From NCBI GenBank assembly GCA_002712715.1, contig PAUF01000007.1, positions 514,134-578,133 on the forward strand: DNA of 64,000 nt, given 5' to 3'. The translations under genes were made by a program, and so were the position numbers. Position 1 is the stretch's first letter. The number at the start of each line of letters is the position of its first letter. Shown here piece after piece: positions 21,159 to 54,023 of this stretch. Origin of the DNA: Flavobacteriales bacterium. Lineage in GTDB: Bacteria > Bacteroidota > Bacteroidia > Flavobacteriales > BACL11. The notes below the pieces were generated by a model. It was not told where the DNA came from. It did no database searches and saw only the letters and a program-made list of their open reading frames with translations.

Positions 21159-21162
21159 CAAC

Positions 21163-28520: not shown

Positions 28521-28527
28521 TTTTTAT

Positions 28528-29565: not shown

Positions 29566-29590
29566 TTATGGTTAAGAATGGTAAAGATAC

Positions 29591-30097
29591 TTATTTTATA
29601 TAAGTAAATAAATTACTCCAGTTTTTTAATGTGAAATTTTCAGATAATTTAATAGATTTAATACCCATAGAGAGTCCCGCTTCAATATCCGAATCTGAAT
29701 CTCCTAATAAATAAGATTTTTTAAAATCAATGTCGGGAAATTCTTGAGCAGCTTGAATTATCATTCCAGGTTTTGGCTTTCTACAATTACATTCGAAATT
29801 TTCTAGATGAGGACAAAAATATATTTTATCAATTTTAACATTATATTTACTCAACTCATCTAACATTTGAGAATGTAAATTTAACAAATCGTTTTCTGTC
29901 ATTAATCCTTTTCCTATACCTTGCTGATTAGTAATGATTATAATTCTTTGAAATTTTTTACTTAAAATTCTCAGAGAGTCAAAAACTCCATCTATAAAAT
30001 TAAACTCTTCATAACTACTAATATAACCTGAAATCTTCTTGTTAATTACTCCGTCTCTATCCAGAAATAGAGTGGAAAACTCAACTTCATGACTCAT
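29591..30097 (-). CDS. gmhB: D-glycero-D-manno-heptose 1,7-bisphosphate phosphatase (HAD)
   Basis: It has the blocks FLDRDGVIN and CxCRKPKPGM. I place the start at ATG 30097 (MSHEV), 1 nt after the gmhA stop. The ORF-track extension to 30142 overlaps gmhA. Confidence 0.8.
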   Translation of the reverse strand: MSHEVEFSTLFLDRDGVINKKISGYISSYEEFNFIDGVFDSLRILSKKFQRIIIITNQQGIGKGLMTENDLLNLHSQMLDELSKYNVKIDKIYFCPHLENFECNCRKPKPGMIIQAAQEFPDIDFKKSYLLGDSDSDIEAGLSMGIKSIKLSENFTLKNWSNLFTYIK

Positions 30098-30098
30098 A

Positions 30099-30671
30099 TT
30101 AAAATAATTTTTTTTCAATAATTTCACATAAAATGTGACCAAATAAAATATGTGACTCCTGAACTCTAGCGGTATTATTTGATGGGGATTTTACTGATAT
30201 ATTACACAAATCACTTAACTTGCTCTTGTCTTTTCCTGTAAAACAAACACTCACAATCCCTAACTTATTTGCCTCAATAACAGCATTTACAATATTCTCT
30301 GAATTTCCTGAAGTTGATATCGCAATCAAAACATCACCTTTCATGCCCATAGCCTTCAACATGCGAGAGTAAACATTTTCGTATCCATAGTCATTAGCAA
30401 CTGCTGTAACATATGAGGAGTTTACATGTAATGCTTCTGCAAATAGTGGTTCTCTATCCATATTAAACCTGCCACTTAACTCCGCAGCGATATGCTGAGC
30501 ATCAGCAGCGCTGCCTCCATTTCCGCATAAGAGCAGCTTATTTCCCCTTTTATATGCATCTATAACACTTTCTACAGATAATTGAAGATTATCTAATATG
30601 TTTTTATCTTCTAATATTAGTGATTTTACACTAATTGAATCATTAATTAATTTTACAATTTGCTCATTCAT
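30099..30671 (-). CDS. gmhA: Phosphoheptose isomerase (SIS domain)
   Basis: It has the blocks CGNGGSAADAQHIAAEL and ISTSGNS and is 190 aa long. Confidence 0.88.
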   Translation of the reverse strand: MNEQIVKLINDSISVKSLILEDKNILDNLQLSVESVIDAYKRGNKLLLCGNGGSAADAQHIAAELSGRFNMDREPLFAEALHVNSSYVTAVANDYGYENVYSRMLKAMGMKGDVLIAISTSGNSENIVNAVIEANKLGIVSVCFTGKDKSKLSDLCNISVKSPSNNTARVQESHILFGHILCEIIEKKLF

Positions 30672-30713
30672 ATTAAATGATATTCAAGTTACATTGCTAA
30701 TATATACATATTA

Positions 30714-31856
30714 TCACAATAAGTTTTTGTATACTTCAGATGTTTTGTGCCCTATAATTTTCCAATCATAATGATTGATAATAAATTCTCTTCCTTTATC
30801 ATTAATCCTAATTAAATCCTCAAAATTCTGGAAAATATGATCTATTTTAGAAGATAAAGAAGAAGGAGATCCATTTTTAAATACATAACCTGTGTCATTG
30901 TCAATAATAACCTCAATTAAGGGTTCTAAATCTGAAACCAATACTGGCTTATTATAACTCATGCTCATCAACAAAACTCCACTTTGATAAATACGAGTAT
31001 ATGGTAAAACTACCAAATCAGCTGCCGAATAATAAAACTTAACATCCTCATGGGAAATGAAATAATTATGAATAATACAATAATCTGATAATTTATTATC
31101 ATTAATTATTTTTTGATAATAAGAAAAATCATCTTTCCAAGCTCTGCCAGCAATGACTAACACAAGATCTTGATTATTCTTAACTACTTCTTTCAATGAT
31201 TTCAACAAAACATCCAAACCTTTATTTTTTTTGATCATTCCAAAAAACAACAACACTTTTTTACTTTCATCAATTCCTATTTTTTTTCTCGAATCGGACT
31301 TATCTACATTTAATTTTACAAAGGGAATATAATTGCCGTGAGGAACTATTTCAACATCGGTTAAATAATAATTTTCTAATAATATTTTTCTAGAAAAACT
31401 ATTATGAGTCAACAACTTATCAGCTCTTTTAAACAACCATTTATTTAATTTTTTATTTGACATTTTATCATCAAAACTAATTACATCATGTATTGTATAA
31501 ACTAATTTCATTGACAAAATTTTCACTAAGAGAAAATCAACTATATTTAATAAATTTGGATGAAAAATATGAAAATGACAAATTTTAGATCCTGAAATCT
31601 TAGCATGAAAAATAGATCTAACTGAACCTATTATATATCTAAAAGCTCTCAATATACGATTATCATTAGAGTAAATTTTATTATAAAATTGATGAAAATT
31701 CAAACCCTTAATTTCTGGATTAGAAGTTATTTCATTAGTATATAAATTTACTTCTACACCAGCATTAATCAAACCGCTTGATTGACCGAACAAGTAATAA
31801 TGATGCGAACTTCCATGAGCACCTAAAGGGTCTATTATTGATACTTTTTGTCTCAT
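30714..31856 (-). CDS. Glycosyltransferase, GT4/GT-B fold
   Basis: At 380 aa, it has a C-terminal GT-B donor-binding region (…SGVLLMSMSYNKPVLVSDLEPLIEVI…). Confidence 0.7.
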   Translation of the reverse strand: MRQKVSIIDPLGAHGSSHHYYLFGQSSGLINAGVEVNLYTNEITSNPEIKGLNFHQFYNKIYSNDNRILRAFRYIIGSVRSIFHAKISGSKICHFHIFHPNLLNIVDFLLVKILSMKLVYTIHDVISFDDKMSNKKLNKWLFKRADKLLTHNSFSRKILLENYYLTDVEIVPHGNYIPFVKLNVDKSDSRKKIGIDESKKVLLFFGMIKKNKGLDVLLKSLKEVVKNNQDLVLVIAGRAWKDDFSYYQKIINDNKLSDYCIIHNYFISHEDVKFYYSAADLVVLPYTRIYQSGVLLMSMSYNKPVLVSDLEPLIEVIIDNDTGYVFKNGSPSSLSSKIDHIFQNFEDLIRINDKGREFIINHYDWKIIGHKTSEVYKNLL

Positions 31857-31857
31857 A

Positions 31858-32766
31858 TTATAATTTTAATCCTTCAAAAAAGGATTTATTAATTAATTTC
31901 CAAGTACTGAAGTTTTTCTGAATATCAATTCTGATAAAAAACTTTAAATTATTCTTAAAAAATAAATAACTAATATATAGGTAAGAGTAAAAAGTACCTA
32001 CTTTTTTTAAAAAATATACATGATTTCGAGTATTCTGTTTAATAAAAAAATCTCCCCTAAAATTTTTATTATTTATGGATTTAAATGATTTAGTAAGTCC
32101 TCCTACTTTATGAAAAAACAACACGTCTGAGAAATAAAAAAGCTTATGTTTTTTATGCTTATAAACTCTATATAAAAAATCAGTATCGTCAAAATAAACA
32201 AAATACTTTTCATCCATATAACCAATATCATGAAAAACAGTATCCTTAATTAACAAACAGCATGTAGGCGCATACTGAGTTTGAAAAATACCATCATACA
32301 ATTGACTATCAGGCTTGCGATTTCCAAAATGGATAGGCAATAATCCTTTAGATTTCACAAAATTACTTCCTGCATACCAAATAATCGAATTATCATCATG
32401 ATATAATATTTTTGGGGCTACCATTGAACAATTATTATTATATTGAATCTCAACCATTTTTTTTATTAAATCATGCTCACATTTAATATCATTGTTAAGT
32501 AATAAAACATTACTACAGTAATCCTCAAGCGCTGCTTTTATTCCTATATTATTTGCTTTAGCTACTCCATAATTAATATTATTACATATTAATTTTACAC
32601 GATTATCTTTCTTTTTTTTTATTAGGCCAATAGTGTTATCTTGAGAGTTATTATCAATAATGTATATATTAAAATTATCATATGACTGATTCAAGATTGA
32701 GTCAAAAAAATCTTCTAAAAATTTCTCAGAATTATATGTAACAGTTACAATACCTATTTTTTCCAC
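31858..32766 (-). CDS. Glycosyltransferase family 2
   Basis: It has the blocks IGIVTVTYNSEKFL and IIDNNSQDNT and a GT-A fold. Confidence 0.8.
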   Translation of the reverse strand: MEKIGIVTVTYNSEKFLEDFFDSILNQSYDNFNIYIIDNNSQDNTIGLIKKKKDNRVKLICNNINYGVAKANNIGIKAALEDYCSNVLLLNNDIKCEHDLIKKMVEIQYNNNCSMVAPKILYHDDNSIIWYAGSNFVKSKGLLPIHFGNRKPDSQLYDGIFQTQYAPTCCLLIKDTVFHDIGYMDEKYFVYFDDTDFLYRVYKHKKHKLFYFSDVLFFHKVGGLTKSFKSINNKNFRGDFFIKQNTRNHVYFLKKVGTFYSYLYISYLFFKNNLKFFIRIDIQKNFSTWKLINKSFFEGLKL

Positions 32767-33611
32767 AGTATTAGATTCTTATTCATAGCTTTCTCAAGCT
32801 TTTCTATATCATTAATATAATACTTAATTATCTTTTTTCTTAACTTATTACACAATATAGGCTTTTTAGAATCTGAAAAAAGATTTTTTTTCACAATGCT
32901 TGTAAATTTTACTGGAAGAATATTTTTCAACAACCTTCTCAAGAAAATCATTGAATATACTTTTCTGATAATTTTATTTTTGGGCAGACTAAAAGCATTG
33001 TGTTTTGTTTGAAGAATTGTATTTTTTTTAATATTAACAGACAAAAATTTATACGTTTTTTGTAATTCTTTTGTTCCAAATTCTACAAAATCTTCATACC
33101 AAATAATCTGAATTCTATCTTTATCAAAATTACTTAAGTATCTCATAACTTGCTCATAATAATTACCTATTTCAAAATACTGTTGAAAAAACAAGCTATC
33201 ACTTTTATTAAATATAGATTCAAAATCTTGATCTACCAAACCTAATTTATAATCCATTAAATAATGAGAAAAAGCTCTATCTACTGGGTTTCTTAGCATA
33301 ATTATAATCTTAGCATTTGTATTATATTGCTTGATTTTTTTTGCTACTAAAGGGTAAAACAAATAAGAAACAGAAGCCTCTCCTCTAATTTGACAATTTG
33401 AATCATCAAACAAATCATGATAATCCTCGATGTTTTCTATGGGATTTTTTCCATAATATAGAGGGTTTTTTAACAATTCATCTTTTGTGAAAAAATCAGG
33501 TTCTTTTATAGCGCTCATGCAAATTACTGAATGTTGTTTTAAATATTCATATAGAGAAGTTGTACCTGCCTTAGGAGCTCCAACAATAAAAAAATCAACT
33601 ATTTTCCGCAT
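32754..33611 (-). CDS. PAPS-dependent sulfotransferase (Sulfotransfer_1-like), copy 1
   Basis: It has the 5'-PSB loop VGAPKAGTTS and the 3'-PB block LRNPVDRAFSHY. Its start overlaps the 3' end of the upstream GH-A-like gene... no: its 3' end overlaps the start of the downstream GT2 gene by 13 nt. Confidence 0.8.
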   Translation of the reverse strand: MRKIVDFFIVGAPKAGTTSLYEYLKQHSVICMSAIKEPDFFTKDELLKNPLYYGKNPIENIEDYHDLFDDSNCQIRGEASVSYLFYPLVAKKIKQYNTNAKIIIMLRNPVDRAFSHYLMDYKLGLVDQDFESIFNKSDSLFFQQYFEIGNYYEQVMRYLSNFDKDRIQIIWYEDFVEFGTKELQKTYKFLSVNIKKNTILQTKHNAFSLPKNKIIRKVYSMIFLRRLLKNILPVKFTSIVKKNLFSDSKKPILCNKLRKKIIKYYINDIEKLEKAMNKNLILWKK

Positions 33612-33627
33612 ACAATATGTATTATAA

Positions 33628-35109
33628 TCAATATAAAAATAAAGAAATACTATGAGGTTTCAATAAAAAAGAATGATTTTGATCGAACTGATTAAATTCA
33701 AACAATTGTTGATATACCAATGTCTCTCTTGGATTAATATAGTAAGAATCACTATTGGTATCAAAAAGATTATTAGAAAAATAAGCGCAAACAAGAGTTT
33801 CTCGATTATTATTTTCGGGTATATTAAACTTTGGATCTAGAGAGTCCAAAGAATCTGAGATATCAATTTCCATATTTGACCAGTTAATAATAAATACTAA
33901 TCTTAAACTATTTTCACTATCAAAACAATAGTATGCAAAAACATCAGAATTTATTTTAACTTTTTCAATTTCATATATTTTGTTAAGAAAAATTTCATTT
34001 AATAAAGTGAATGGGATAAATGTAGAGTGGATATTAAATGTATCCATATTGTTCTTAAATATTGAGCCTGAAATATCTCTTCCAGCTAAATTATGATAGC
34101 TAGCGATAGTAATATTTTTCAATTCAGAAGATGAAAATAGTTCCATCATAAAGTGAGAAACAAAAAGAGATTGCAGCATTGTGTTTCCTGTTGTTTTTGA
34201 CATTTGCAAATTCCATTCAGTTAACCAAATTTCAACATCACCAAAAATCTCAATATATTCATTGATTTTTGACTTAAATCCTATATCTAATTCATGCAGA
34301 ATGATCTCCTTGTATAAAGAGAATTTTTTTTCAATAGGGATTTCAACGCTTTCTTCAAAAATCATTTGACCTGCTTCCGCTACTCCGCTAATAACCTTTG
34401 TATAAGAGTGATGAATAATAGCGTCAAAAAAATCATATTTCGCCAATTCCGAATTCCAATTCTTAATTCTGCTTGGCATATTTTTTTTAATTGGTGCCGC
34501 CACAACAGCAATTTTAAGTTCCGGATGATTTAATCTTATTTTTGAAGCAAATTTTTTAGATAAAATAAGATAGTCATCTATGTCTTTAATTTTTTTTGAA
34601 AAAGCTCTATTTGACAATTCACAACCTAACTCTACTCCAACTATCTCAATTTTTTCTGATTTTAATCGATCTATCATAGTCAATATCTCATCAGTATCTG
34701 CAGTAATAATATTAGCAACAACTAAAGCTTTAGCATTAACTTCTTTAATCAATCTTATATAATCATTAATATAGTTATGATTGTGTCCTTTTCTATTCTG
34801 ATCTTTTATCAATCCCCTAACACGTTTAGGCATTTTCTGAGAATGCCATTTATCTACTTCACTGATTTTAAATCCATAAGCAGGGCCGCTTACATGATAA
34901 AAGTTAGATATATTACCTCCAGGGAATCTCAAAATATTTGGAGATATAAAATTAATTTTATCTAAAAATTCCTTATCATTTACATCAAAATAAGTAAATG
35001 TATTAGATGTATTAAAACCAAATAAGTTTTTATTAATAGATGCTGATTGAGGAAAAACAAATAAAGTACAAAAAAATATGAGAATACAACAAAAAATTCT
35101 TTTCATCAT
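33628..35109 (-). CDS. Secreted (beta/alpha)8 clan GH-A-like glycoside hydrolase
   Basis: It has a signal peptide and the blocks ILRFPGGN, VGVELGCE (where the acid/base NE is expected) and IWLTEWN (nucleophile position). Confidence 0.5.
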   Translation of the reverse strand: MMKRIFCCILIFFCTLFVFPQSASINKNLFGFNTSNTFTYFDVNDKEFLDKINFISPNILRFPGGNISNFYHVSGPAYGFKISEVDKWHSQKMPKRVRGLIKDQNRKGHNHNYINDYIRLIKEVNAKALVVANIITADTDEILTMIDRLKSEKIEIVGVELGCELSNRAFSKKIKDIDDYLILSKKFASKIRLNHPELKIAVVAAPIKKNMPSRIKNWNSELAKYDFFDAIIHHSYTKVISGVAEAGQMIFEESVEIPIEKKFSLYKEIILHELDIGFKSKINEYIEIFGDVEIWLTEWNLQMSKTTGNTMLQSLFVSHFMMELFSSSELKNITIASYHNLAGRDISGSIFKNNMDTFNIHSTFIPFTLLNEIFLNKIYEIEKVKINSDVFAYYCFDSENSLRLVFIINWSNMEIDISDSLDSLDPKFNIPENNNRETLVCAYFSNNLFDTNSDSYYINPRETLVYQQLFEFNQFDQNHSFLLKPHSISLFLY

Positions 35110-36233
35110 TTTATCATACCTTTATTTTTTAATTCAATTACTGATTCCTTATATCTATCCATCATAACATCCTGACATTCAACCCATTTTACAAAATTTT
35201 TAATCCCAGAATCAAAGTCCGTTTTAGATTCAAAACCTAAATACGCCTTTGATTTTTTTACATCCGCAAAATTATGTCTAATATCACCGACTCTATATCT
35301 ACCCGAAATATTAATTTCAATGCTTGAATTATATAAATCCCTCAATTTTCTTGCTACATCAATAACCTTAATTCCTTTACCACTACCAACATTAAAAATA
35401 TCTTGTTGAATATCAGATGATTTAATAGATGAAAAAATAGATTCTATCACATCATCTATATAAATAAAATCTCTAGTTTGATTTCCGTCTTCATAAATTT
35501 CTATATTATTAGAATTTAAAATATTTGTGGAAAATACTGACAAAATTCCAGTATAAGGGTTAGATAAAGATTGTCCAGGACCATATACATTTTGAAACCT
35601 TAGAGAAATTGCAGAAATATCTAATGATTTACCTAAAAGAAGCACCATCTGTTCTTGTTGATATTTATTCATCCCGTAAATTGAATTAGGATTTATTTTA
35701 GATAATTCATCAGTATTAATAGCTTCCATATTCAAATTTGAACTTGGACATTTAACTTCAAAGTCATGGTTTTTCAAATTAATTTCTGATCTACTAAGTG
35801 GATATTGAAACCCTAATTTTTGAGAATAATACTTGCCTTCACCATATACAGCTCGAGATGAAGCTATAATTAATTTCTGTATATTATGACTTGTATTTAA
35901 TATAGACTCTAATAGAGTAGAAGTCCCCATTATATTGACATCATTATAATGATTAATTTTATACATTGATTGTCCAGTACCTGTTTCAGCTGCTAAATGA
36001 ATAATAATATCTTGATTTTTTATGGATTGAGAGCATTTTTCTGCATCTCTCACGTCACCAATAATTAATTTACTTATCTCTTGCAATTCACGAATTGTCT
36101 GCTTTGGATTTTCACCATGAATTTGGGTTGAAAGATTATCTAATATAGTAATATTATATCCATTACAATATAAGAACTTCGTTAATGCTTTCCCTATAAA
36201 TCCAGCTCCTCCTGTAATTAAAATATTTTTCAT
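35106..36233 (-). CDS. NAD-dependent sugar-nucleotide epimerase/dehydratase/reductase
   Basis: It has the Rossmann motif ILITGGAGFIGKAL and the YxxxK motif YGMNKYQQE. It is 375 aa long. Confidence 0.75.
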   Translation of the reverse strand: MKNILITGGAGFIGKALTKFLYCNGYNITILDNLSTQIHGENPKQTIRELQEISKLIIGDVRDAEKCSQSIKNQDIIIHLAAETGTGQSMYKINHYNDVNIMGTSTLLESILNTSHNIQKLIIASSRAVYGEGKYYSQKLGFQYPLSRSEINLKNHDFEVKCPSSNLNMEAINTDELSKINPNSIYGMNKYQQEQMVLLLGKSLDISAISLRFQNVYGPGQSLSNPYTGILSVFSTNILNSNNIEIYEDGNQTRDFIYIDDVIESIFSSIKSSDIQQDIFNVGSGKGIKVIDVARKLRDLYNSSIEINISGRYRVGDIRHNFADVKKSKAYLGFESKTDFDSGIKNFVKWVECQDVMMDRYKESVIELKNKGMIK

Positions 36234-36237
36234 ATGA

Positions 36238-37551
36238 TTATTTTGTAAATCTACTAAAAAAGGAAATCATTCCTGAAATAATGAATATTAGAAAAAATGG
36301 TCTAAATAATACTGGCTCAAAAAAAACTGAAATTATTATAATGAAGAGAAATAATTTTTTTCTTTCTGTAAATAAAGTTTGATTTAATAAAAAATAAAAG
36401 AAAATAAAAAATACAGGGAAACCCATAGTAGCCATCATTCCAGTAAGAGAATTAGTACTTCCTTTATCTGAAAATTCTGGCTTAAGTTTAAAACTTGTTA
36501 TATTCTCTACAAATTCAAGAGCATTTCTGCAGCTTCCTTTCATTGTATAACCCTTTCGAAATTCTCTAAATGCAACTAAATCTAAACCAACTCCGGAAAG
36601 TGGGTAGTCAGATGCAATACATGGACATTGTATTAAATCAAACATTCTTTTCTGAAATGAACTTTCTTCATTACCTACCGCTTTATTAAGGACATTAGGA
36701 ATAATAATATTTTTTCCTATATAATAAGCCGAAACAATTAGAGATGCTGATATTAAAATTACAATTAAAGGGTTTCTACGAACAATATTTTGATAAATAG
36801 AATCCATGTAGAGCGATAGAATTAATACTACCATTATAATGAAACCAGATGTTGAAAAAGTGGTAAATATTGAGAAAATAATCAAAAGTATTATCCATTT
36901 TTTTTTCTGTTTAAACACAAAACCTTCAAGAAAAAGTAAAATATTCAAATATATTTGATTTATACCTGGTTCCCAAAACCATCCTTGGTTCCTCACCAAA
37001 TCTATACCAAAAAATGTATACTCATGTTTAAGATCATAAAAAAACAAATAATTAAAATGCTGGACAGTATGAGAAGGAATAATCCATTTAGGTAAATTAG
37101 ATAAATATGAATTTCCAACAACGATTCCCAAAATGAAAGTTATTAAAGAAATAATTAAAATTATTCTCAAAACAGTTCTCAAATATACAAGGAACTTATC
37201 TATACCTATATTATTAAATATATGGATGCAAATTAAAACACACGTCATAATATTTAACAAGTAGAAACCATATTTTATCGCTTCCTGCGGTAAAGGACCT
37301 GCAAGTAAATAATTATATAAAATAATTATATAGGTAAAAATTAAAGTAACTATCGAAGCGCTAAATACAACTCTCTTCAAAGGTTTTTTATATAATAACA
37401 ATGTTAATAATGATACAGCACATAATAATAAATAAGCTGGTTTCTTAAAATAAACGAAAAATATACCTCCTCCACTCAAAGTTAATAGCAAGAATAAAAA
37501 TATATTTAATTTGTTATATATCGAACTCAGTCTCATATTTTTTGATGCCAA
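36238..37551 (-). CDS. wzy: Polytopic membrane protein, O-antigen/repeat-unit polymerase (Wzy)-like
   Basis: It has 10 or more hydrophobic segments and a large loop, and sits between sulfotransferase and epimerase genes in a Wzx locus. Confidence 0.55.
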   Translation of the reverse strand: MASKNMRLSSIYNKLNIFLFLLLTLSGGGIFFVYFKKPAYLLLCAVSLLTLLLYKKPLKRVVFSASIVTLIFTYIIILYNYLLAGPLPQEAIKYGFYLLNIMTCVLICIHIFNNIGIDKFLVYLRTVLRIILIISLITFILGIVVGNSYLSNLPKWIIPSHTVQHFNYLFFYDLKHEYTFFGIDLVRNQGWFWEPGINQIYLNILLFLEGFVFKQKKKWIILLIIFSIFTTFSTSGFIIMVVLILSLYMDSIYQNIVRRNPLIVILISASLIVSAYYIGKNIIIPNVLNKAVGNEESSFQKRMFDLIQCPCIASDYPLSGVGLDLVAFREFRKGYTMKGSCRNALEFVENITSFKLKPEFSDKGSTNSLTGMMATMGFPVFFIFFYFLLNQTLFTERKKLFLFIIIISVFFEPVLFRPFFLIFIISGMISFFSRFTK

Positions 37552-38435
37552 TCAAATTGTTTTTTTACCAACTTTTCAAATTTAAATATATCGTTTTTAA
37601 AATATTTCATATACATTGATTTTTTTATTTTTTCAGGCAATTCATCATAAATAAATGGTTTCGTATTAAGTGATTGAATTCTATTTCTAATAATCTGTCG
37701 ATATTTTAATGATGGGATTAGCGTTTTAACAACGTTATTCCACCATCCTTTTTTATTTAATACTTTTTTAAGAAACTTCATTCTAGATTTACTAGAAGGA
37801 TTACTTAAGTGATCTAAATTAAAATCAAAAGATTCTAAACCCATAAATAATATTAAATTATCTATTGTTTCCTTTCTGTTATTAATAAAATCAGCTTCAA
37901 AATCTATAATGAAAAAATTTTCCAAAGAAAAGTACTCTAAATATCTCTCCATCATCAATCCATATAGACTCTGGTTATAATATGAATGACGAAGCGATGA
38001 TATATTATTATTGTTAATACTATATTGATATAATCTTGTATCCTCCTCAGCAATAGCCTGTAAGAAGGTTAATGGTTCTTCTTCATCTCTTTTGGAATGC
38101 AAATAATGTGAATAAGCGCGATCTATAGGATCTCTCAATATTAAAACAAACTTCATATCTCCGCCAAAAGCATTGAAAATTCTTCTTGGCGCTTTACTAC
38201 AAAAAAAATACGACGGAGTATAATCAACACTTATTTTTTGATTAACATCTTTATAATATGTAGACTCATACCAGGATAAACCCTTTTCATAATTTTCATC
38301 AATATCAAAAAAATGTGGTTCTTTAAAAGAGGGAGAATAAATATTTGGATGCTGCCTTAAAATATTAAACAGACTAGTAGTACCACTTTTAGCGGCTCCA
38401 ACACACATTATATTTGGACAATTTAACTTAACCAA
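37533..38435 (-). CDS. PAPS-dependent sulfotransferase, copy 2
   Basis: It has the blocks VGAAKSGTTS, KEPHFF and LRDPIDRAYSHY. Confidence 0.8.
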   Translation of the reverse strand: MVKLNCPNIMCVGAAKSGTTSLFNILRQHPNIYSPSFKEPHFFDIDENYEKGLSWYESTYYKDVNQKISVDYTPSYFFCSKAPRRIFNAFGGDMKFVLILRDPIDRAYSHYLHSKRDEEEPLTFLQAIAEEDTRLYQYSINNNNISSLRHSYYNQSLYGLMMERYLEYFSLENFFIIDFEADFINNRKETIDNLILFMGLESFDFNLDHLSNPSSKSRMKFLKKVLNKKGWWNNVVKTLIPSLKYRQIIRNRIQSLNTKPFIYDELPEKIKKSMYMKYFKNDIFKFEKLVKKQFDWHQKI

Positions 38436-39325
38436 TGTTGTAAATCTTTTTTCAAAAATTTTGAAAGTTTTAAAATATCTTTTTCATAATAATCTTTCAA
38501 AACTTTTCTTTCTATATATGACATTTCAGATGTTTTAAAACTGTATGAATCAACTAATCTATTACGTATCAATTTTCTTAATTTTTTAAAGGGAATAACA
38601 AATTTGAAGAATTGTTTTAACTTATTTTTACTAACTAATAAATTTTTAACATAATTATTTGTCCAATTCCACCCACCAACCATATATTTATTTTCTTGAT
38701 CTACTAATATAGAAGAAATTCCTAAAAAACAAAAAATGGAATCCATCTCATTCTGAGAATTATGTTTAAAATCTTCAAAAAAAACTATCTTAACATTATC
38801 AAATTCTTCTCTATATTTCTTTACCTGTTCATAATACATCCCCAAAGTTTTATACCTACTTGCAGGAGTCATTAAATTATCTTGTAAATACCTTTCCTCG
38901 CATACATTCCAAGCGCTCAAAAAATTTTCATTGGTTTCTTTAACATTATACCTTCTTACATGATGATATCCAGAATAAGCTCTATCAATTGGGTTTCTCA
39001 ATGCTATAATTATTTTGACATCATCTCCAAAATGATATTTTATTTTGGGAATCACTATTTCAGGATACATTAAATACATTACTGATGATTCTCCTCTATA
39101 AGTTAATGACTTTCCTTTATAAAACAAATCATAATATTCTTCTGAATTAATAACTCCTGAAGGTATTCGATTTACTCCTATCTCTTTATTAATTAAAAAA
39201 TGTGGTTCCTTTGGGGTGCACATATGAATTTCAGGGTGTTGATTTAAATAATTATGAATAGAAGTAGTTCCACTTTTTGCAGCGCCTACTATAAATAAAT
39301 TGGGACTAACTAATTCTCTATCCAT
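38423..39325 (-). CDS. PAPS-dependent sulfotransferase, copy 3
   Basis: It has the blocks VGAAKSGTTS, KEPHFL and LRNPIDRAYSGY. Confidence 0.8.
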   Translation of the reverse strand: MDRELVSPNLFIVGAAKSGTTSIHNYLNQHPEIHMCTPKEPHFLINKEIGVNRIPSGVINSEEYYDLFYKGKSLTYRGESSVMYLMYPEIVIPKIKYHFGDDVKIIIALRNPIDRAYSGYHHVRRYNVKETNENFLSAWNVCEERYLQDNLMTPASRYKTLGMYYEQVKKYREEFDNVKIVFFEDFKHNSQNEMDSIFCFLGISSILVDQENKYMVGGWNWTNNYVKNLLVSKNKLKQFFKFVIPFKKLRKLIRNRLVDSYSFKTSEMSYIERKVLKDYYEKDILKLSKFLKKDLQHWLS

Positions 39326-40221
39326 TTTGACAAATCTTTTTTTAACAAATTACCCAATTTCATTACATCATCCTTATAAAATTGCTTTAGTTTGGCTCTT
39401 GTTTCTAAATTCATATCATCTACCTTTTTCTTAGAAAAATTTTCTAAATTTTTTCTGATATTTTTTCTTGAATTAGAGTTAAATAGACTCTTAGAAGTTC
39501 TTCTAATTAAATTATCTCTCATAAATATTTTTTTAACAAAATCATTCTTCCATTGCAAACCCCCTACATTATGTTTTACGGAAAAATCAATTTTTTGGTT
39601 AGGGTATACTTCTAAAAAATCAAATGTTTTCTTTAACTCAAACTCTGTATTATCTTTAAAGTCATCATGAAAAATTATATGAATATTTTCAAATTCATTT
39701 TTATAATAGTTAACCATTTTATAATAAAGGCCCATATCTTGATACATTACCATTGGAGTAAGCTGCTGATCACGCTCCAATCTATCTTTTTCTAACATTA
39801 AAGCTTCTTCAAAAGAAAATGATTCCTTTAACCCCCTAGATACATGAACATATGCCGAATATGCACGATCCACTGGATTTCTCAGCATAATTATAATCTT
39901 CACATCTGATCCTAAGTATTTCTTGATGTTATTAATAGCATGCTCATAATAATATAAGTATAATACGGTGGATTCTCCTACAGCTTTGAAATCACTTGAA
40001 GATTTAAATAAGTTCTTATACTCATTCCAATCCCAAACTCCACTATGTATTCTTTTTTTCACAAGATCTTTAATAAAAAACCTTGGCTCTTTCACTTTTA
40101 AACCATTTTCAGTATATGAAGGTAAGAAAATATCATTATGCTGATTAAGATAATTATGTAAAGATGAAGTCCCACTTTTTGCAGCTCCTACAATTAAAAA
40201 ATTTGGTAATTTTAAATTCAT
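39310..40221 (-). CDS. PAPS-dependent sulfotransferase, copy 4
   Basis: It has the blocks VGAAKSGTSS, KEPRFF and LRNPVDRAYSAY. Confidence 0.8.
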   Translation of the reverse strand: MNLKLPNFLIVGAAKSGTSSLHNYLNQHNDIFLPSYTENGLKVKEPRFFIKDLVKKRIHSGVWDWNEYKNLFKSSSDFKAVGESTVLYLYYYEHAINNIKKYLGSDVKIIIMLRNPVDRAYSAYVHVSRGLKESFSFEEALMLEKDRLERDQQLTPMVMYQDMGLYYKMVNYYKNEFENIHIIFHDDFKDNTEFELKKTFDFLEVYPNQKIDFSVKHNVGGLQWKNDFVKKIFMRDNLIRRTSKSLFNSNSRKNIRKNLENFSKKKVDDMNLETRAKLKQFYKDDVMKLGNLLKKDLSKWIEN

Positions 40222-41603
40222 AATCTTATAAAAGGTAAATAAAATGTAAAAAATCCGAATTTCTTCTTAATAAAAAGAACCATAGTTAGATTCCAAAAGA
40301 TCAAACTAGACATTGTTGCGATAGCGGCTCCTAATATCCCATACTTTGGAATTAATATAAAATTTAAACCTATATTTAATATTGCCCCAAGAGACAAGAT
40401 GATAAAATAAATATTTTGATTACCAGTCATTTGAAGTATATTTCCTACAGATCCTGAAATTGAACTAACAAACCTTCCTATTGATAACAGTATAAAAGCG
40501 CTAACTCCGTATTGAGCGAATTGTGGACCAAATAATCCTAAAATAAACTCAGGGAACATAAAAAAAATAATTAATAATGGTAATGTAGTCCAGAAAATCA
40601 ATTTGGTTGATTGAAATGACACCTTTTTTAATCCCTGTAAATCATTTCTACTATACATTTCTGCAAATTTTGGTGCTGCAATACTATTTATTGCCATTAA
40701 AGAAATAGCGGCAAACATAGACAGTCGAAAAGCAGCATGGTATATACCCACTTCTGTTTTCGTATCAGCGACAAGACCATCAACAACGTTTGGAGATTTT
40801 ATAGCGCCTAACATCAACTTATCTGTCCATGACATTATGAATTGAGCAGACTGAGCAAACATTAATGGAATGGATATTTTAATAATTGTTGAATCGTTAA
40901 TTTTTTCTACTAATGAATCATAAGAAATATTTTTATAAATAGCATATCTCATAGAGAAAAACGAAAGAATAGAGACAATAAGTATACTTATTAAAAACGC
41001 ATATAATGGAACGTTATACTGATGAGCATCTTCTATTAAAAAAAATTCATGAATTATATAGAGAATAATTAATGTAAACAAAGTAATAGAAACTCGAAAA
41101 AAAAAGGAAAACATAGCAATTTTCTTCAGTCCTCTTAAACTCTGATAATGGAGTACAAACAAAGACATCGGGGTAACAAAAAAAGCTAGTAATTGTAAAA
41201 TTGAAGAATCAATATTCACAATTTCAGAAATTTGATGAGATAAAAAATACATCAGGAATGAACTCAATATAGAAGAAATGGTAATTATTTGAATCATTTG
41301 GCTATTTAGCTTAAGTATACTATACCATCTTTTCTTTGTAGCAAATGAAGAGAAAAAACGAATTGCTGTAGTATCTATGCCTAATTTTCCAAAAACAACA
41401 AAAATTTTTAAAACTGTTATAGCAAGAACATATTCTCCAAGACTATCAGCACCATATTTACGAGCTATAAAAAAAGTCAATAAATAGCCTATAGCTAAAC
41501 CTGTTATTCTTAAAATAAATGATATTGAGCTTCCCCTAAATATTTCATTGAAGTCAGAGTCTCTTAGCAAACCATTTATTTTATTCTTAATATTTGAAAT
41601 CAT
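40218..41603 (-). CDS. wzx: Polysaccharide repeat-unit flippase (Wzx, MOP superfamily)
   Basis: The 461-aa protein has about 12 TM segments and a typical polysaccharide-biosynthesis-protein layout. Confidence 0.7.
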   Translation of the reverse strand: MISNIKNKINGLLRDSDFNEIFRGSSISFILRITGLAIGYLLTFFIARKYGADSLGEYVLAITVLKIFVVFGKLGIDTTAIRFFSSFATKKRWYSILKLNSQMIQIITISSILSSFLMYFLSHQISEIVNIDSSILQLLAFFVTPMSLFVLHYQSLRGLKKIAMFSFFFRVSITLFTLIILYIIHEFFLIEDAHQYNVPLYAFLISILIVSILSFFSMRYAIYKNISYDSLVEKINDSTIIKISIPLMFAQSAQFIMSWTDKLMLGAIKSPNVVDGLVADTKTEVGIYHAAFRLSMFAAISLMAINSIAAPKFAEMYSRNDLQGLKKVSFQSTKLIFWTTLPLLIIFFMFPEFILGLFGPQFAQYGVSAFILLSIGRFVSSISGSVGNILQMTGNQNIYFIILSLGAILNIGLNFILIPKYGILGAAIATMSSLIFWNLTMVLFIKKKFGFFTFYLPFIRL

Positions 41604-41610
41604 CTATATG

Positions 41611-42444
41611 CTATTCTACCAAAAACCATGGGTTTAAAAGATTTTTCTTGTTATAATTTAACTCTTGTTCAGAATTATACTTACAAACTTTGAATCCAGC
41701 AAATTTAACAATAGCATGCCCTGAAGCAGTGTCCCACTCCATAGTTGGAGCATATCTAGGATAAGCATCAGCATTGCCTTCAGCAACCATACATAACTTT
41801 AAAGAAGATCCTACACTTAGAATATCAATTTTATTATGCGTTTTTTTCTTTTGCTGAAAAAAATGTTCAGTTTCATTAGACATATGAGAACGAGAACCAA
41901 CTATTGTATAAGTTTCTCTAGTATTTTTTGCCGGTAATTTTTTAGCATTAGACATAAGCTGGTTAAAATTTTTAATTGTATGCATAATTTTAGTTTTCTT
42001 ATATGAACCCAAATCTGACATACCAAAATATAATTCTTGCTTTACAGGAACATATATAACCCCAAGTACAGGAGTGTCATTATGTATTAAAGCAATATTT
42101 ACAGTAAATTCGCCATTTCTTTTAACAAATTCTTTTGTCCCATCAAGAGGATCCACAAGCCAAAAGAAGGTCCAATCTTTTCTTTTTTCATAAGAGATCT
42201 TAGATCCTTCCTCACTTAAAATTGGAAGGTTAGTATCTCTTAACATTTTCTCAATTATATCATTACAATTTCTATCAGCCATTGTCAAGGGAGAATTATC
42301 TTTTTTGGTCTCAACAATAAAATCAGAAGCGTATACATCCATTATTTCCTTGCCTCCACTAAGAGCAGCATTTACCGATGTAATTAATAAAGATTGTGAT
42401 ACAGACTGAAATTCTAAATCGTGAATACTATTCTTGTTTTTCAT
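41611..42444 (-). CDS. cysQ: 3'(2'),5'-bisphosphate nucleotidase (PAP phosphatase, inositol-monophosphatase fold)
   Basis: It has the blocks ILSEE and WLVDPLDGTKEF. Its context is cysC and the sulfotransferases. Confidence 0.8.
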   Translation of the reverse strand: MKNKNSIHDLEFQSVSQSLLITSVNAALSGGKEIMDVYASDFIVETKKDNSPLTMADRNCNDIIEKMLRDTNLPILSEEGSKISYEKRKDWTFFWLVDPLDGTKEFVKRNGEFTVNIALIHNDTPVLGVIYVPVKQELYFGMSDLGSYKKTKIMHTIKNFNQLMSNAKKLPAKNTRETYTIVGSRSHMSNETEHFFQQKKKTHNKIDILSVGSSLKLCMVAEGNADAYPRYAPTMEWDTASGHAIVKFAGFKVCKYNSEQELNYNKKNLLNPWFLVE

Positions 42445-43151
42445 TGGTTTTCATTTAAAATTTGGAAAGCTTTGGAAGTTCCTATTCTGGAAGCTCCAGC
42501 ATCAATTAAACATTTACATTGCTCTATATTTTCGATACCTCCTGAGGCTTTAATTTCAAGCCCACTAATTGAAGATTTTATTAGTTTAACATGATATTCT
42601 TTTGCACCGAATCCACCATAATAGCCAGTGCATGTTTTAATATATACATTCCTCACAAAAGGTTGGAAATATTTATTAACTAAATAACTTATTCTAGAAG
42701 AAATTCCTGCAATTTGATTATCACTAAGAGCTGGAGTTTCTATAATCCACTTAACCGGAATATTTTTCTCATATCCAATCCTGGTTCCTTCAATAATAAC
42801 AATGTCAAACTTGTCAAAATTTTTATCCTTGTATGATCTGTAATCTGCGACATAATCCAATTCATCTGCTCCCATAGAAATCGCTTCTAAAGCGTCTTTA
42901 ACAACATTTTTTATTGGATCATTACCTTTTGGGAAATTAATCACAGTACCTAGAATAACATTTTTCTTTGAATGATCAATAATCTTTTTAGCTAAAGTGA
43001 GGTGATTAGAACGGATCATAACAGCCAAGAAGTTATTGTTAATAGCTTCAGTAACTAAATCAATTACCTTTAGTCTATTTTCCTCAGGCGTCAAACAAGC
43101 TTCTTTAGGAAGTTTAAGATAAGTAGATTCTAAATATCTGTCAATTCTCAT
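42441..43151 (-). CDS. Deoxyribose-phosphate aldolase (DeoC) family class-I aldolase
   Basis: It has the Schiff-base Lys block YIKTCTGY and the block IKASGGI...AGASRIGTS. A 4-nt overlap couples it to cysQ. Confidence 0.65.
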   Translation of the reverse strand: MRIDRYLESTYLKLPKEACLTPEENRLKVIDLVTEAINNNFLAVMIRSNHLTLAKKIIDHSKKNVILGTVINFPKGNDPIKNVVKDALEAISMGADELDYVADYRSYKDKNFDKFDIVIIEGTRIGYEKNIPVKWIIETPALSDNQIAGISSRISYLVNKYFQPFVRNVYIKTCTGYYGGFGAKEYHVKLIKSSISGLEIKASGGIENIEQCKCLIDAGASRIGTSKAFQILNENQ

Positions 43152-43173
43152 TTACAATATACATGATTTTGAG

Positions 43174-43181
43174 CAAATCTA
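43174..43181 (-). promoter_or_regulatory. -7 promoter box (TAGATTTG on the minus strand)
   Basis: The plus strand reads CAAATCTA, 23 nt upstream of ATG 43151. Confidence 0.4.
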
Positions 43182-43213
43182 GTAATTTTAAAGGAATTTA
43201 TTAAAAGAGTCTA

Positions 43214-43687
43214 TTATAAAACGATGCTACTATCAGAAAGATACTTCTCAACATCAGACTGAATAGATTCATCTACTAGTTCTCTCCATTCATGATTTCC
43301 TTCTTTAATAGAGTCCCTTATTTTAGTTGCAGAAATCCAACCAATATTTGGTGGGGGTGTAAACTCATTAATCTCATACCCTACACCTCTACCAAAATTA
43401 ACACTCTCGATATCAGGTATTATAATAACTTTAACGTCATGACCATGTGCTTCATGATATTTCTGTATCATCGCAACTGTTTGTTCAGTTGTGAAAGGAT
43501 TCTTAGCATCTGGATCAATATCTCTAACCATTATAAGCGCAGGGATTCCATCATTGATTTTTTGCATAATTAATGAAATATGCCCTTGATGATAAGGTTG
43601 AAATCTACCTACAAATATCGAATATTTTTTACTTTCATTACTAGTAGGTTCTCCACCATGATTAATTACGTCCCACTTTTTTTCCAT
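43214..43687 (-). CDS. Small HxGH nucleotidyltransferase (cytidylyltransferase-like superfamily, NMNAT-like)
   Basis: It has the motifs FVGRFQPYHQGH and ISATKIRD and is 157 aa long. The substrate is unknown. Confidence 0.6.
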   Translation of the reverse strand: MEKKWDVINHGGEPTSNESKKYSIFVGRFQPYHQGHISLIMQKINDGIPALIMVRDIDPDAKNPFTTEQTVAMIQKYHEAHGHDVKVIIIPDIESVNFGRGVGYEINEFTPPPNIGWISATKIRDSIKEGNHEWRELVDESIQSDVEKYLSDSSIVL

Positions 43688-43693
43688 AATTTC

Positions 43694-44290
43694 TTATTTT
43701 ATAATATTATTTTCTTTTAAATAATCGACAACTATTTGAGCACATTCGTCAATACCTTGTTGATCAGTTCTAATAGATAATTCTGGATTAGTGGGTACTT
43801 CATATGGAGCATCAATACCTGTAAAACCTTTAATTTCTCCGGATCTTGCTTTTTTATATAATCCTTTAGGGTCTCTGCTTTCACATACATCAAGAGGAGT
43901 ATCAACAAACACTTCAACAAAGTCTTCTCCTATAACTTTTCGGGCAGATTCTCGATCTTCAAGATAAGGAGAAATAAATGCTGTAAGAACTAAAATACCA
44001 GCGTCAGCAAACAAATTGGATACTTCAGTAATTCTTCGTATATTTTCAGTTCTATCTTCTGGAGAAAAACCTAAATCTTTATTCAATCCCATTCTAACAT
44101 TATCTCCATCTAATATATAAGTATGAATTCCCATATCATGTAATAATTTTTCTGTCGCATTAGCGATAGTAGATTTACCAGATCCTGATAAACCTGTAAA
44201 CCAAATTACACGAGATTGATGTAGGTTTTTTTTCTCTTTTAAATCTCTTGGAACACGATGTTTATGAAAATATAAATTATCTGCACTCAT
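43694..44290 (-). CDS. cysC: Adenylyl-sulfate (APS) kinase
   Basis: It has the P-loop [11 protein letters not shown] and the block [17 protein letters not shown]. Confidence 0.92.
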
Positions 44291-44309
44291 AAATTTAATT
44301 TTAGGATTG

Positions 44310-44317
44310 CAAATCTA
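44310..44317 (-). promoter_or_regulatory. -7 promoter box (TAGATTTG on the minus strand) ahead of cysC and the glycan locus
   Basis: The plus strand reads CAAATCTA, 20 nt upstream of ATG 44290. Confidence 0.45.
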
Positions 44318-44365
44318 CAATTTTATTTGAGATTTACATGAAATCAAGATGTTTTTATGAAAATA

Positions 44366-45055
44366 CTACCCAAGAGTACACCTAATTGGCACCGTATATT
44401 TTACTGGGACAGCTTTACCAATTTGTCTACCTGGAGTAAATTCTGGTAATTTATTAATCACCTCGATAGCCGCCTCATCTACATATTTATCCAAACCCTT
44501 AAGTATTTTAACCCTTCCTACTTCTCCATTCTTCTCAACAACAAACTCAAGAATAACTTTTCCTTCTACTCCATTAGCTTTAGCTATTTCAGGATACCTA
44601 AAGTTCCTGGCAATAAATTTCATAATCTCTGTTTGAGTGCACTGCTCATCTTCGCAATTACCTAACAACGGCATCTGCTCTACAGAAATAAAAGGCTCGG
44701 CAAATTCCTCTTCATACATTTCAAATTCATCATCTTCATCTGTCTCCGAGGAAGTGAGATCTAATTCATTTTCTAACTCTTCATCATCTTCCTTAACCTC
44801 AATTTCTTCTGGCAACTCTGGAGGAGGCTGCTCCTTTGGGGGAGGAGGTGGTGGCTTCTGCTCTTCAGGTCTAGTAATTTCTATATCCTCCTCGTCTATT
44901 TCTTCAAAATTAGATGCGAATCTATTAGTTTTAATATCTACTGAAGTTATATTAAGTAAAATCAAAATTAAAGACGCTGCTGCTAGTAACGAAACTGGAA
45001 AGAATATAGGTTTCCAAATATTAATATCTACTTTGGGATTTTTCTTTGAATCCAT
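44366..45055 (-). CDS. tonB: TonB-family energy transducer
   Basis: It has an N-terminal TM anchor, a Pro/Glu-rich spacer KPPPPPPKEQPPPELPEE and a C-terminal TonB domain (YPEIAKANGVEGKV...). Confidence 0.8.
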   Translation of the reverse strand: MDSKKNPKVDINIWKPIFFPVSLLAAASLILILLNITSVDIKTNRFASNFEEIDEEDIEITRPEEQKPPPPPPKEQPPPELPEEIEVKEDDEELENELDLTSSETDEDDEFEMYEEEFAEPFISVEQMPLLGNCEDEQCTQTEIMKFIARNFRYPEIAKANGVEGKVILEFVVEKNGEVGRVKILKGLDKYVDEAAIEVINKLPEFTPGRQIGKAVPVKYTVPIRCTLG

Positions 45056-45059
45056 CTCG

Positions 45060-45437
45060 CTAAGATACTAAATTTTTATAGTCTTCTGCAGATAACAATG
45101 TATCTATCTCATTAGAATCAATATTTGACAATTTAACAATCCACCCTTCCCTATATGGGTCAGTATTAATTAGCTCAGGATTATCTTCCAACATAGTATT
45201 CACTTCCAAAACTAAACCAGAAATAGGCATGAACAGGTCAGAAACAGTCTTAACAGCTTCAATTGTGCCAAATACTTCTTCTTGATCTAATTCTTCATCT
45301 AATGAATCTACTTCCACAAAAACTATTTCTCCTAACTCTTTTTGAGCAAAATCAGTTATTCCAACCGTAGCTATATTTCCTTCTATTTTAATCCACTCGT
45401 GATCTTTTGTATACTTTAATTTATCTGGCAAGTTCAT
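45060..45437 (-). CDS. gcvH: Glycine cleavage system H protein
   Basis: At 125 aa, it has the lipoyl-Lys block [11 protein letters not shown]. Confidence 0.9.
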
Positions 45438-45479
45438 TTTAAAATTTTTTTGCTAAAATACAACTTTATGAGTTCACTG

Positions 45480-45487
45480 CAAAACTA
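45480..45487 (-). promoter_or_regulatory. -7 promoter box (TAGTTTTG on the minus strand) for gcvH-tonB
   Basis: The plus strand reads CAAAACTA, 43 nt upstream of ATG 45437. It overlaps the sprA stop. Confidence 0.35.
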
Positions 45488-54003: not shown

Positions 54004-54023
54004 ATTTTATTATTTATTAATTA

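Follow-up and report, generated by a model that had tools for sequence, protein, structure and literature searches.

Four genes in the stretch of DNA analysed here (the window: 64,000 nucleotides of a Flavobacteriales bacterium, assembly GCA_002712715.1, contig PAUF01000007.1, positions 514,134 to 578,133 of the forward strand) are read as encoding soluble carbohydrate O-sulfotransferases that depend on 3'-phosphoadenosine 5'-phosphosulfate (PAPS). In this reading, to which a probability of roughly 70% is given, they belong to the branch that holds the N-sulfotransferases and 3-O-sulfotransferases (the NST/3-OST-like branch), lie in a Wzx/Wzy operon and sulfate the repeat unit of its product at different positions. 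The locus is a polysaccharide operon of the Wzx/Wzy type that carries genes of its own for supplying the sulfate donor and for removing 3'-phosphoadenosine 5'-phosphate (PAP), and the bacterium probably makes a densely sulfated, heparin-like glycan. An earlier note on this DNA, made from the letters alone, had placed the four open reading frames (ORFs) exactly where they were found again:

39310-40221, minus strand: STa, sulfotransferase copy 1, 303 aa, KEPRF variant, PF00685 43.9 bits
38423-39325, minus strand: STb, sulfotransferase copy 2, 300 aa, KEPHFLI, PF00685 57.0 bits
37533-38435, minus strand: STc, sulfotransferase copy 3, 300 aa from a TTG start, KEPHFFD, PF00685 62.9 bits
32754-33611, minus strand: STd, sulfotransferase copy 4, 285 aa, KEPDF, PF00685 71.6 bits

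Family, fold and catalytic residues of the four sulfotransferases

The Sulfotransfer_1 type proposed in the earlier note was borne out by Pfam, where PF00685 matches all four copies with 43.9-71.6 bits against a gathering cut-off of 22, so that the likeness among the copies is not a matter of chance. Sulfotransfer_3 (PF13469) is also above its cut-off in all four. In the alignment, the blocks VGA[AP]K[SA]GT[TS]S, KEP[HRD]F[FL] and LR[ND]PxDRA[YF]S occur in every copy, as had been described. The C-terminal tail described with them is likewise present in all four, but its pattern had been drawn too narrowly, since STa reads FYKDD where Y[YF]xxD was given; the start of the tail is better written [YF][YF]xxD(I/V)xK(L/F). 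Outside the shared blocks the copies are indeed clearly divergent, with pairwise identities of 28-41% by blastp and 29-44% by global alignment. By blastp, STa and STb are 41% identical, STd is 33-34% identical to either of them, and STc is 28-30% identical to the other three. A search of PHROGs gave no useful match to the sulfotransferases. None of the four has a hydrophobic segment, and no signal peptide or membrane segment was found; the strand of the P-loop starts at most 10 residues from the N-terminus in each. These two features together indicate that the four sulfotransferases are soluble and cytoplasmic.

The closest relative of solved structure is 3rnl (E-value 1e-33 for STb and 5e-28 for STc), followed by sequence by the sulfotransferase domain of human NDST1 and the heparan-sulfate 3-O-sulfotransferases. 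STb, the only sulfotransferase for which the fold was modelled, gave an AlphaFold2 model with a pLDDT of 88.6 and a pTM of 0.83. In a Foldseek search of the PDB with this model the top 50 matches were all of the sulfotransferase fold, among them 3rnl (3.6e-18), NDST1 and 3-OST-1, 3-OST-3 and 3-OST-5, with the cytosolic SULTs scoring much lower than these.

Polysaccharide sulfotransferases are defined by a lysine in the 5'-phosphosulfate-binding (PSB) loop, a serine in the PB helix and a histidine or glutamate that acts as base, the base being glutamate in HS3ST1 and NST1 (PMC11625862). For 3-OST-3, the residues found to be important are Lys162, Arg166, Glu184 (the base), His186, Asp189, Lys215, Gln255, Lys368 and Arg370 (PMC8341778). 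The PSB lysine, the glutamate of KEPxF and the Arg/Ser of the 3'-phosphate-binding (3'-PB) site occur in all four copies, and among about 30 non-identical orthologues of each copy they never vary or are kept in at least 95%; in STa, the K, E, R and S are invariant in 31 orthologues. In the HMMER alignment, K16, E39, H41 and D44 of STc stand opposite K162, E184, H186 and D189 of 3-OST-3, and STc has a threonine for Arg166 and a tyrosine for Lys215; STb keeps the K, E and H. The equivalent of His186 is invariant in STb and STc, an invariant arginine in STa (the Arg of KEPRF, in 31 orthologues) and variable in STd. The full residue set of the 3-OST subfamily is found in none of the copies, which, as far as their sequences tell, are relatives in the NST/3-OST-like branch and not members of that subfamily. 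The most 3-OST-like is STc, with an E-value of 4.8e-23 to 3-OST-5 and EPHFFD...Y.KG..WY in common, compared with only 1e-3 for STb. The closeness of STc to the animal 3-OSTs raises the question of an ancient relationship between bacteria and animals in this branch of enzymes.

The departure of STa (KEPRF) and STd (KEPDF) from the motif makes these two the candidates for a different reading, in which at least one copy is a dead pseudo-enzyme, maybe a scaffold or an acceptor-binding subunit. His186 is among the important residues of 3-OST-3, and it is arginine in STa and variable in STd. Nonetheless, this reading is considered very unlikely. Every orthogroup keeps the PSB lysine, the glutamate base and the 3'-PB Arg/Ser, and the active enzyme NDST1 appears to carry a glutamine at this position (FEEIQFF, in a realignment by hand) which, if right, means that the histidine is not universal. 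The ratio of nonsynonymous to synonymous substitution rates (dN/dS), calculated against the 93%-identical metagenomic relative L005, is as low in STa (0.18) and STd (0.19) as in STb (0.23) and STc (0.20), and all four values lie inside the range of 0.08-0.46 of the neighbouring genes. The earlier note had named a lack of essential catalytic residues as a finding that would speak against specialised copies; what was found is that these residues are intact in genes with a dN/dS of about 0.2.

Organization of the operon

The genes of the locus form an unbroken run on the minus strand, from 44290 down to 27408. As identified with Pfam and NCBIfam, the order on this strand is SprA, GcvH, TonB, CysC, NT157, DeoC-like, CysQ, Wzx, STa, STb, STc and Wzy, followed by the epimerase, X493, STd, GT2, GT1, GmhA, GmhB, Gmd, a WecA-like initiating transferase and Y528. 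Besides the sulfotransferases, these features are:

43694-44290, minus strand: CysC, adenosine 5'-phosphosulfate (APS) kinase, APS_kinase 239.5 bits
43214-43687, minus strand: NT157, small protein of the HxGH adenylyltransferase fold and candidate compact ATP sulfurylase, 157 aa, CTP_transf_like
42441-43151, minus strand: DeoC-like aldolase, TIGR00126 130 bits (cut-off 117)
41611-42444, minus strand: CysQ-like 3'(2'),5'-bisphosphate nucleotidase for PAP removal, Inositol_P 168 bits
40218-41603, minus strand: Wzx-type flippase, Polysacc_synt and MatE, about 10 hydrophobic segments
36238-37536, minus strand: Wzy-type polymerase from an ATG start (TTG alternative at 37551), Wzy_C 28.3 bits, at least 9 hydrophobic segments
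35106-36233, minus strand: NAD-dependent sugar epimerase/dehydratase, Epimerase 159.6 bits
33628-35109, minus strand: X493, conserved exported protein, 493 aa, N-terminal hydrophobic, signal-like segment, weak Glyco_hydro_cc match
31858-32766, minus strand: GT2 glycosyltransferase, Glycos_transf_2 88.5 bits, overlapping STd by 13 nt
30714-31856, minus strand: GT1-group (GT4-family) glycosyltransferase, Glycos_transf_1 94.5 bits
30099-30671, minus strand: GmhA-like SIS protein (Pfam)
29591-30142, minus strand: GmhB-like HAD protein (Pfam)
28528-29565, minus strand: GDP-mannose 4,6-dehydratase (Gmd), equivalog 454.6 bits (cut-off 415)
27408-28520, minus strand: WecA/MraY-family initiating transferase, Glycos_transf_4 (PF00953)
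25825-27411, minus strand: Y528, 528 aa, aromatic- and Asn-rich, C-terminus YYDF

The matches to Polysacc_synt/MatE, PF00953, GT2 and GT1 are all above the Pfam cut-offs.

The earlier note had also described the overlaps between these genes. Read from the sequence, wzx and STa overlap by 4 nt (ATGA) and STa and STb by 16 nt, as it had stated, and the 13-nt overlap of STb and STc holds with the TTG start of STc at 38435. This start is supported by two observations. The next ATG, at 38408, would delete most of strand beta-1 together with the residues PN before it, which are at least 95% conserved in 30 orthologues; and upstream of that ATG the sole difference from the 93%-identical relative is a change of TGT to TGC, which is synonymous in this frame. 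The overlap of 19 nt given for STc and wzy did not stand: it is obtained only with a TTG at 37551, while the ATG at 37536 gives an ATGA overlap of 4 nt, which is most likely the true one. In L005, a close relative, wzy is called from the corresponding ATG.

Every junction between cysQ and GT2 overlaps or abuts in about 26 non-redundant relatives, with a modal overlap of 4 nt for the operon as a whole. At the individual junctions, the mode is -4 for wzx/STa and, from the ATG, for STc/wzy; STa/STb is -16, -13 or -1, STb/STc is -13 or -4, and STd/GT2 is -13 in most relatives. This pattern is consistent with a single, densely packed operon in streamlined genomes. Such overlaps of stop and start codons would permit translational coupling, which the earlier note took from the sequence.

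Orthologues and phylogeny of the copies

Homologues of STb fall into more than 1100 clusters, the best of which are 54-59% identical, plus one at 93%; the main sources of the best-scoring ones are metagenomes of ENA, JGI and Tara and metagenome-assembled genomes (MAGs) of marine Flavobacteriales. Related loci were collected from contigs with STb homologues and from a scan of the GTDB species genomes, and were annotated with the proteins of the window. This gave about 45 loci from MAGs and single-amplified genomes (SAGs) of uncultured marine Flavobacteriales, contigs of 1.4-1.9 Mb included, which represent about 35 GTDB species. No account of the sulfotransferase locus of this clade was found in the literature.

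The whole operon is syntenic in these relatives and always stands beside SprA-GcvH-TonB. In nearly all related loci that cover that side, cysQ is directly upstream of wzx; X493 is always present, the position of wzy is conserved, and the orthologues of STd sit at the same position, between X493 (or a fifth sulfotransferase, STe) and GT2. Orthology is one-to-one by position, with identities of 48-61% for STa, 44-59% for STb, 41-54% for STc and 33-51% for STd, higher than the 28-44% between paralogues. Neighbour-joining trees, for which some extreme distances were too large for the Kimura correction, recover STa, STb and STc as monophyletic groups, with bootstrap values of 94%, 100% and 100%, but do not show STd as exclusive (20%). 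The old duplications that the earlier note expected are in agreement with these monophyletic orthogroups and with orthologues being closer to each other than paralogues are. Two further proposals about their origin were dropped. Recent tandem duplication could not be kept as the demonstrated origin, as STc scores 85 bits against animal 3-OSTs (phmmer) and 82-100 bits against its neighbours (blastp); and the placement of "STa-like" genes of Chitinophagales as sister to STa, seen in a single neighbour-joining tree, had bootstrap values of 0-7%.

The number of copies varies between lineages. The tandem block a-b-c occurs in 26 distinct junction sets; a b-c block, with STb following wzx and STa absent, is found at 13 distinct junctions, and an a-b block, with STb followed by wzy and STc absent, at 7. 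Wherever a related locus resolves the sulfotransferase block, STb is present. Most relatives carry the fifth sulfotransferase STe between X493 and STd (15500-16510 in L001/L002, and most of L009-L042), a protein of 336 aa with a hydrophobic segment at its C-terminus and an identity of about 19% to the other copies. The window lacks it altogether, and only 16 nt (33612-33627) separate X493 and STd there. Each copy also has conserved blocks of its own outside the PAPS motifs: GvW...eY and ltPM.mY in STa, TPasRY and MvGgW.w.n in STb, lR.SY..Q..Y in STc and SHYlMD..lG in STd. The one-to-one orthology, the blocks specific to each copy and the pattern of gain and loss argue for functions that are old, non-redundant and modular.

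These data also bear on the reading in which the paralogues are redundant, sulfating the same position, with their number serving dosage or robustness. Catalytic motifs and fold are common to all four copies, and the lineages without STa or STc show that single copies are dispensable for keeping the locus. Redundancy is nonetheless regarded as quite unlikely: the paralogues are only 28-41% identical, the conserved blocks of each are maintained across about 30 orthologues, purifying selection on each orthogroup goes back to before the split of the species, and in genomes of 1.4-1.9 Mb one would expect redundant copies to disappear or to become alike.

MAGs of Chitinophagales (L043, L046, L050, L053, L054 and L061) have a cluster of another organization, in which wzx, GT2, GT1 and cysQ are interspersed with five or six sulfotransferase genes. 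It shows that operons with multiple sulfotransferases are not limited to the Flavobacteriales clade.

Proposed mechanism and acceptor

In the proposed mechanism, CysC and an ATP-sulfurylase activity, here probably provided by NT157 in place of CysDN, would make PAPS locally. Each sulfotransferase would use the PSB-loop lysine and the 3'-PB Arg/Ser, with the glutamate of KEPxF as general base, and would place sulfate on a hydroxyl or sugar of its own in the repeat unit carried by undecaprenyl-PP at the cytoplasmic face of the membrane, CysQ clearing the inhibitory product PAP. Wzx would then flip the sulfated unit and Wzy would polymerise it to a densely sulfated surface glycan. Sulfation is placed at the cytoplasmic face, before flipping, because PAPS and the enzymes are both cytoplasmic. 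Given that one initiating transferase and two glycosyltransferases stand against four sulfotransferases, the sulfates of the product could outnumber its sugars; about four sulfates at most on a repeat of about three sugars would give it a charge density like that of glycosaminoglycans. We infer the acceptor, the non-redundant regiospecificity and the sulfation before flipping from the arrangement of the locus and the features of its proteins.

The acceptor could also be another one, namely a nucleotide-sugar precursor, lipid A/core or another glycolipid, a protein glycan or a small molecule. Bacterial sulfotransferases that act on glycolipids and lipo-oligosaccharides are known (NodH, Stf0, KpsS; PMC11625862), and homologous sulfotransferases occur in phage modules with an APS kinase and an NT157-like gene, without wzx or wzy. 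This is thought unlikely, since wzx and wzy directly enclose three of the copies and GT2 shares 13 nt with the fourth, this gene order is kept in about 35 species, and the nearest solved relatives act on polysaccharide chains.

Several observations weigh against the reading of the four genes as sulfotransferases with distinct positions on a Wzx/Wzy-made repeat unit. At the level of the enzymes, NCBIfam has no model for any of the four, the equivalent of Lys215 is absent from all of them and that of His186 is changed in STa and not constant in STd. The trees give no clear order for the deeper branches of the paralogues and so do not demonstrate an origin by local tandem duplication, and the gene overlaps, being normal operon-wide, say little that is specific to the sulfotransferases. 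At the level of the pathway, the Wzy_C match of 28.3 bits is below the cut-off of 31.7, in a protein that is polytopic and conserved in position among the relatives. The window ORFs that were searched with Pfam included no recognisable PCP/OPX protein (polysaccharide co-polymerase/outer-membrane polysaccharide export; Wzc/Wza) or O-antigen ligase, and no CysD, CysN or Sat was found in the 64-kb window. The host organisms are, moreover, uncultured. Proteins for chain length, export or ligation may be encoded elsewhere.

NT157 and the sulfate-activation step

The PAPS genes present in the window are cysC and cysQ, and relatives carry cysNDC at the position of cysC and NT157. In related loci the slot between TonB and DeoC/CysQ holds either a divergent cysN-cysD-cysC or a co-oriented cysC-NT157, never both. 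Between loci with sulfotransferases of only 44-55% identity, NT157 reaches 78-86%, and the CysC beside it is of a distinct type, with 67-77% identity to the CysC of the window as compared with 43-56% for the type linked to cysNDC. A MAG labelled "Flavobacteriales bacterium" encodes the same protein (MBE50905.1, 100% identity to NT157).

In Pfam and NCBIfam, NT157 matches only CTP_transf_like, with archaeal NMNAT models far below threshold (50 bits against 127). Its AlphaFold2 model (pLDDT 91.9) has NMNAT and PPAT, both ATP-dependent adenylyltransferases, as top Foldseek matches. NT157 matches neither PF01747 nor CysD/CysN, and no Sat structure was among the top Foldseek matches; one fused homologue has a sub-threshold match to the end of PF01747. 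The motifs GR(W/F)QPxHxGH and ISATxIR and the family-specific GRGVGY are found family-wide, the last of these standing where the NMNAT of M. jannaschii has NSIWVSY.

The gene is linked to APS kinase well beyond this clade. Among the best 150 representatives at 50% identity, 39 are fused to an APS-kinase domain (26 as kinase-NT, 13 as NT-kinase), and four distant stand-alone homologues adjoin an APS kinase, a sulfotransferase or both. In IMG/VR an APS kinase is adjacent in 79 of the 80 best viral loci with an NT157-like gene (L098-L177), a sulfotransferase is present in 24 of these 80 and an ORF of DUF2061 in 41. In databases the homologues are labelled "hypothetical" or "cytidyltransferase-like", and the fusions "adenylyl-sulfate kinase". 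No relevant literature was found on an NMNAT- or cytidylyltransferase-like ATP sulfurylase or on DUF2061 with APS kinase, in a search whose coverage of the literature was limited and whose outcome is weak evidence.

NT157 is probably a compact ATP sulfurylase, in the sense that it would work like one and not that it is a member of a sulfurylase family. It would adenylylate sulfate, and the kinase would then phosphorylate the 3' position, the same two-step logic as that of PPAT followed by dephospho-CoA kinase. In genomic role it resembles CysDN, occupying the cysDN slot beside cysC and upstream of cysQ and the sulfotransferases. With canonical ATP sulfurylases it has the nucleotidyl-transferase motifs HxGH and ISxTxxR in common, and its fusion to APS kinase is as in PAPS synthases; it differs from them in its 157 aa and its NMNAT/PPAT-like fold.

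Three other assignments were rejected, the first two as leading ideas. A heptose-1-phosphate nucleotidyltransferase, prompted by gmhA and gmhB, and a true NMNAT are disfavoured by the linkage to APS kinase, and not to gmh, in every context examined, and by scores far below the NMNAT equivalog cut-offs. The reading of the fusions as NadR-like proteins, with an NMNAT and a ribosylnicotinamide kinase, fails on the kinase halves, which match APS_kinase with up to 230 bits.

The viral loci show a recurring arrangement of an optional Sulfotransfer_1 gene, an APS kinase, an NT157-like gene and an optional DUF2061 gene (L098-L177, also L092-L097), which suggests a portable module for PAPS synthesis and sulfation as a viral auxiliary function.

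A wider proposal is put forward tentatively, at a little under even odds. It holds that the product is a combinatorially sulfated, glycosaminoglycan-like surface glycan of abundant planktonic Flavobacteriales, and that its pattern differs between lineages as single, position-specific sulfotransferases come and go (the fourth combined with a-b-c, b-c or a-b, and with the fifth or not). In this genome its synthesis would be fed by NT157 as a so far unrecognised ATP sulfurylase of about 150 aa, which phages would have spread widely.

Comparison with known systems

A sulfated-polysaccharide cluster of the Wzx/Wzy type is an already known type of system; what is notable here is the density of sulfotransferases, their conservation and the host clade. 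A polysaccharide cluster that joins PAPS genes to sulfotransferases has been described as the hallmark of the synthesis of sulfated polysaccharides (PMC11641403). The synechan cluster xss of Synechocystis sp. PCC 6803 is Wzx/Wzy-dependent and has two sulfotransferases for two sulfates per eight sugars, so that the number of sulfotransferases matches that of sulfates per repeat (PMC8205485). Like the present locus, it combines the Wzx/Wzy pathway with PAPS-dependent enzymes of the Pfam Sulfotransfer families. It differs in having two sulfotransferases for eight glycosyltransferases, against four (five in most relatives) for about three here, and in lying on a megaplasmid with the regulators XssQRS, whereas the present locus is chromosomal, at a fixed position of the core genome, with its own cysC, cysQ and PAPS module. 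The two hosts belong to different phyla.

Among marine heterotrophs, Vibrio sp. KMM 8419 (PMC11641403) and Cobetia marina KMM 1449 (PMC11766843) likewise combine genes for PAPS synthesis with several sulfotransferases. The Vibrio cluster has cysNDC and three sulfotransferase genes (PMC11641403), and its capsule is exported by an ABC transporter of the kps type, with the sulfotransferases scattered over a region of 80 genes. In contrast, the present locus uses the Wzx/Wzy pathway, its tandem sulfotransferases are contiguous and overlapping, and NT157 replaces cysDN.

With the animal NDST1 domain and 3-OST-1/3/5, the four copies have in common the fold, the PSB lysine, the 3'-PB Arg/Ser and the glutamate base in a (K/A)EPHFF(D) loop, and the animal heparan-sulfate enzymes similarly use several paralogues to write the sulfation pattern on one glycan. 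The animal enzymes are, however, type-II membrane proteins of the Golgi that act on the finished polymer in the lumen, whereas the copies of the window have neither anchor nor signal peptide. These copies also differ in having no equivalents of Lys215 and Arg166 of 3-OST-3, and identity to the animal enzymes is at most about 33%, over the N-terminal two-thirds only. The best full-length match, in sequence and in fold and with the basic C-terminal helical insertion included, is 3rnl, a structural-genomics entry from Alicyclobacillus acidocaldarius; this uncharacterised protein comes from a Firmicute, and the identity is 28%.

Other features of the locus and of the window

X493 has no match in NCBIfam or PHROGs, and a sequence search of the PDB gave nothing credible; with its signal-like segment and its weak Glyco_hydro_cc match, it could be an exported glycan-processing enzyme. 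Y528, at the distal end of the operon, matches no Pfam or NCBIfam family and is kept in a few relatives (L035, L037, L039); its composition and C-terminus suggest that it may be an outer-membrane beta-barrel. The GmhA-like, GmhB-like and Gmd genes hint at a heptose or a 6-deoxy sugar in the repeat unit, and no heptose kinase or heptose nucleotidyltransferase is recognisable in the window. Gmd is found in some relatives only. In most related loci the gene of the DeoC-equivalog aldolase separates cysQ from the PAPS module; in L087-L090, genes for aldehyde dehydrogenase come after it.

Elsewhere in the window, the plus strand carries at 378-7240 a run of genes resembling the kynurenine pathway (aldehyde dehydrogenase, Amidohydro_2, cyclase/formamidase, kynureninase and FAD monooxygenase), which suggests tryptophan degradation or de novo synthesis of NAD and is unrelated to NT157. 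Several proteins with Por_Secre_tail, the sorting domain of type IX secretion, lie near SprA at 17402-23325 (plus strand) and 53299-56011, including a PLD-like protein and Omp28-domain proteins. By SprA and the Por_Secre_tail proteins the locus is assigned to Bacteroidota. An Rfam scan of the whole window found no RNA family. A scan for promoters and terminators from 27000 to 45500 gave counts equal to those of shuffled sequence, with models that do not cover the promoters of Bacteroidota.

Biological meaning

Sulfated polysaccharides are usually seen as products of algae and animals, and marine Flavobacteriia are usually cast as their degraders. Among bacteria, sulfated polysaccharides have been stated to be essentially a cyanobacterial speciality (PMC8205485). 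That about 35 species of uncultured marine Flavobacteriales conserve, in their core genome, an operon with four or five sulfotransferases suggests that these bacteria also produce highly sulfated glycans, which could matter for recognition by phages and grazers, for metal binding and for the pool of recalcitrant sulfated carbon in the sea. If the proposed role of NT157 is true, it would represent a third, minimal type of sulfate-activating enzyme, together with a PAPS and sulfation module that is carried by phages. The old and intact paralogues, with their lineage-specific presence and absence, constitute a natural experiment on the rules of regiospecificity in bacterial polysaccharide sulfotransferases, and such rules are in demand for the enzymatic synthesis of heparin-like molecules.

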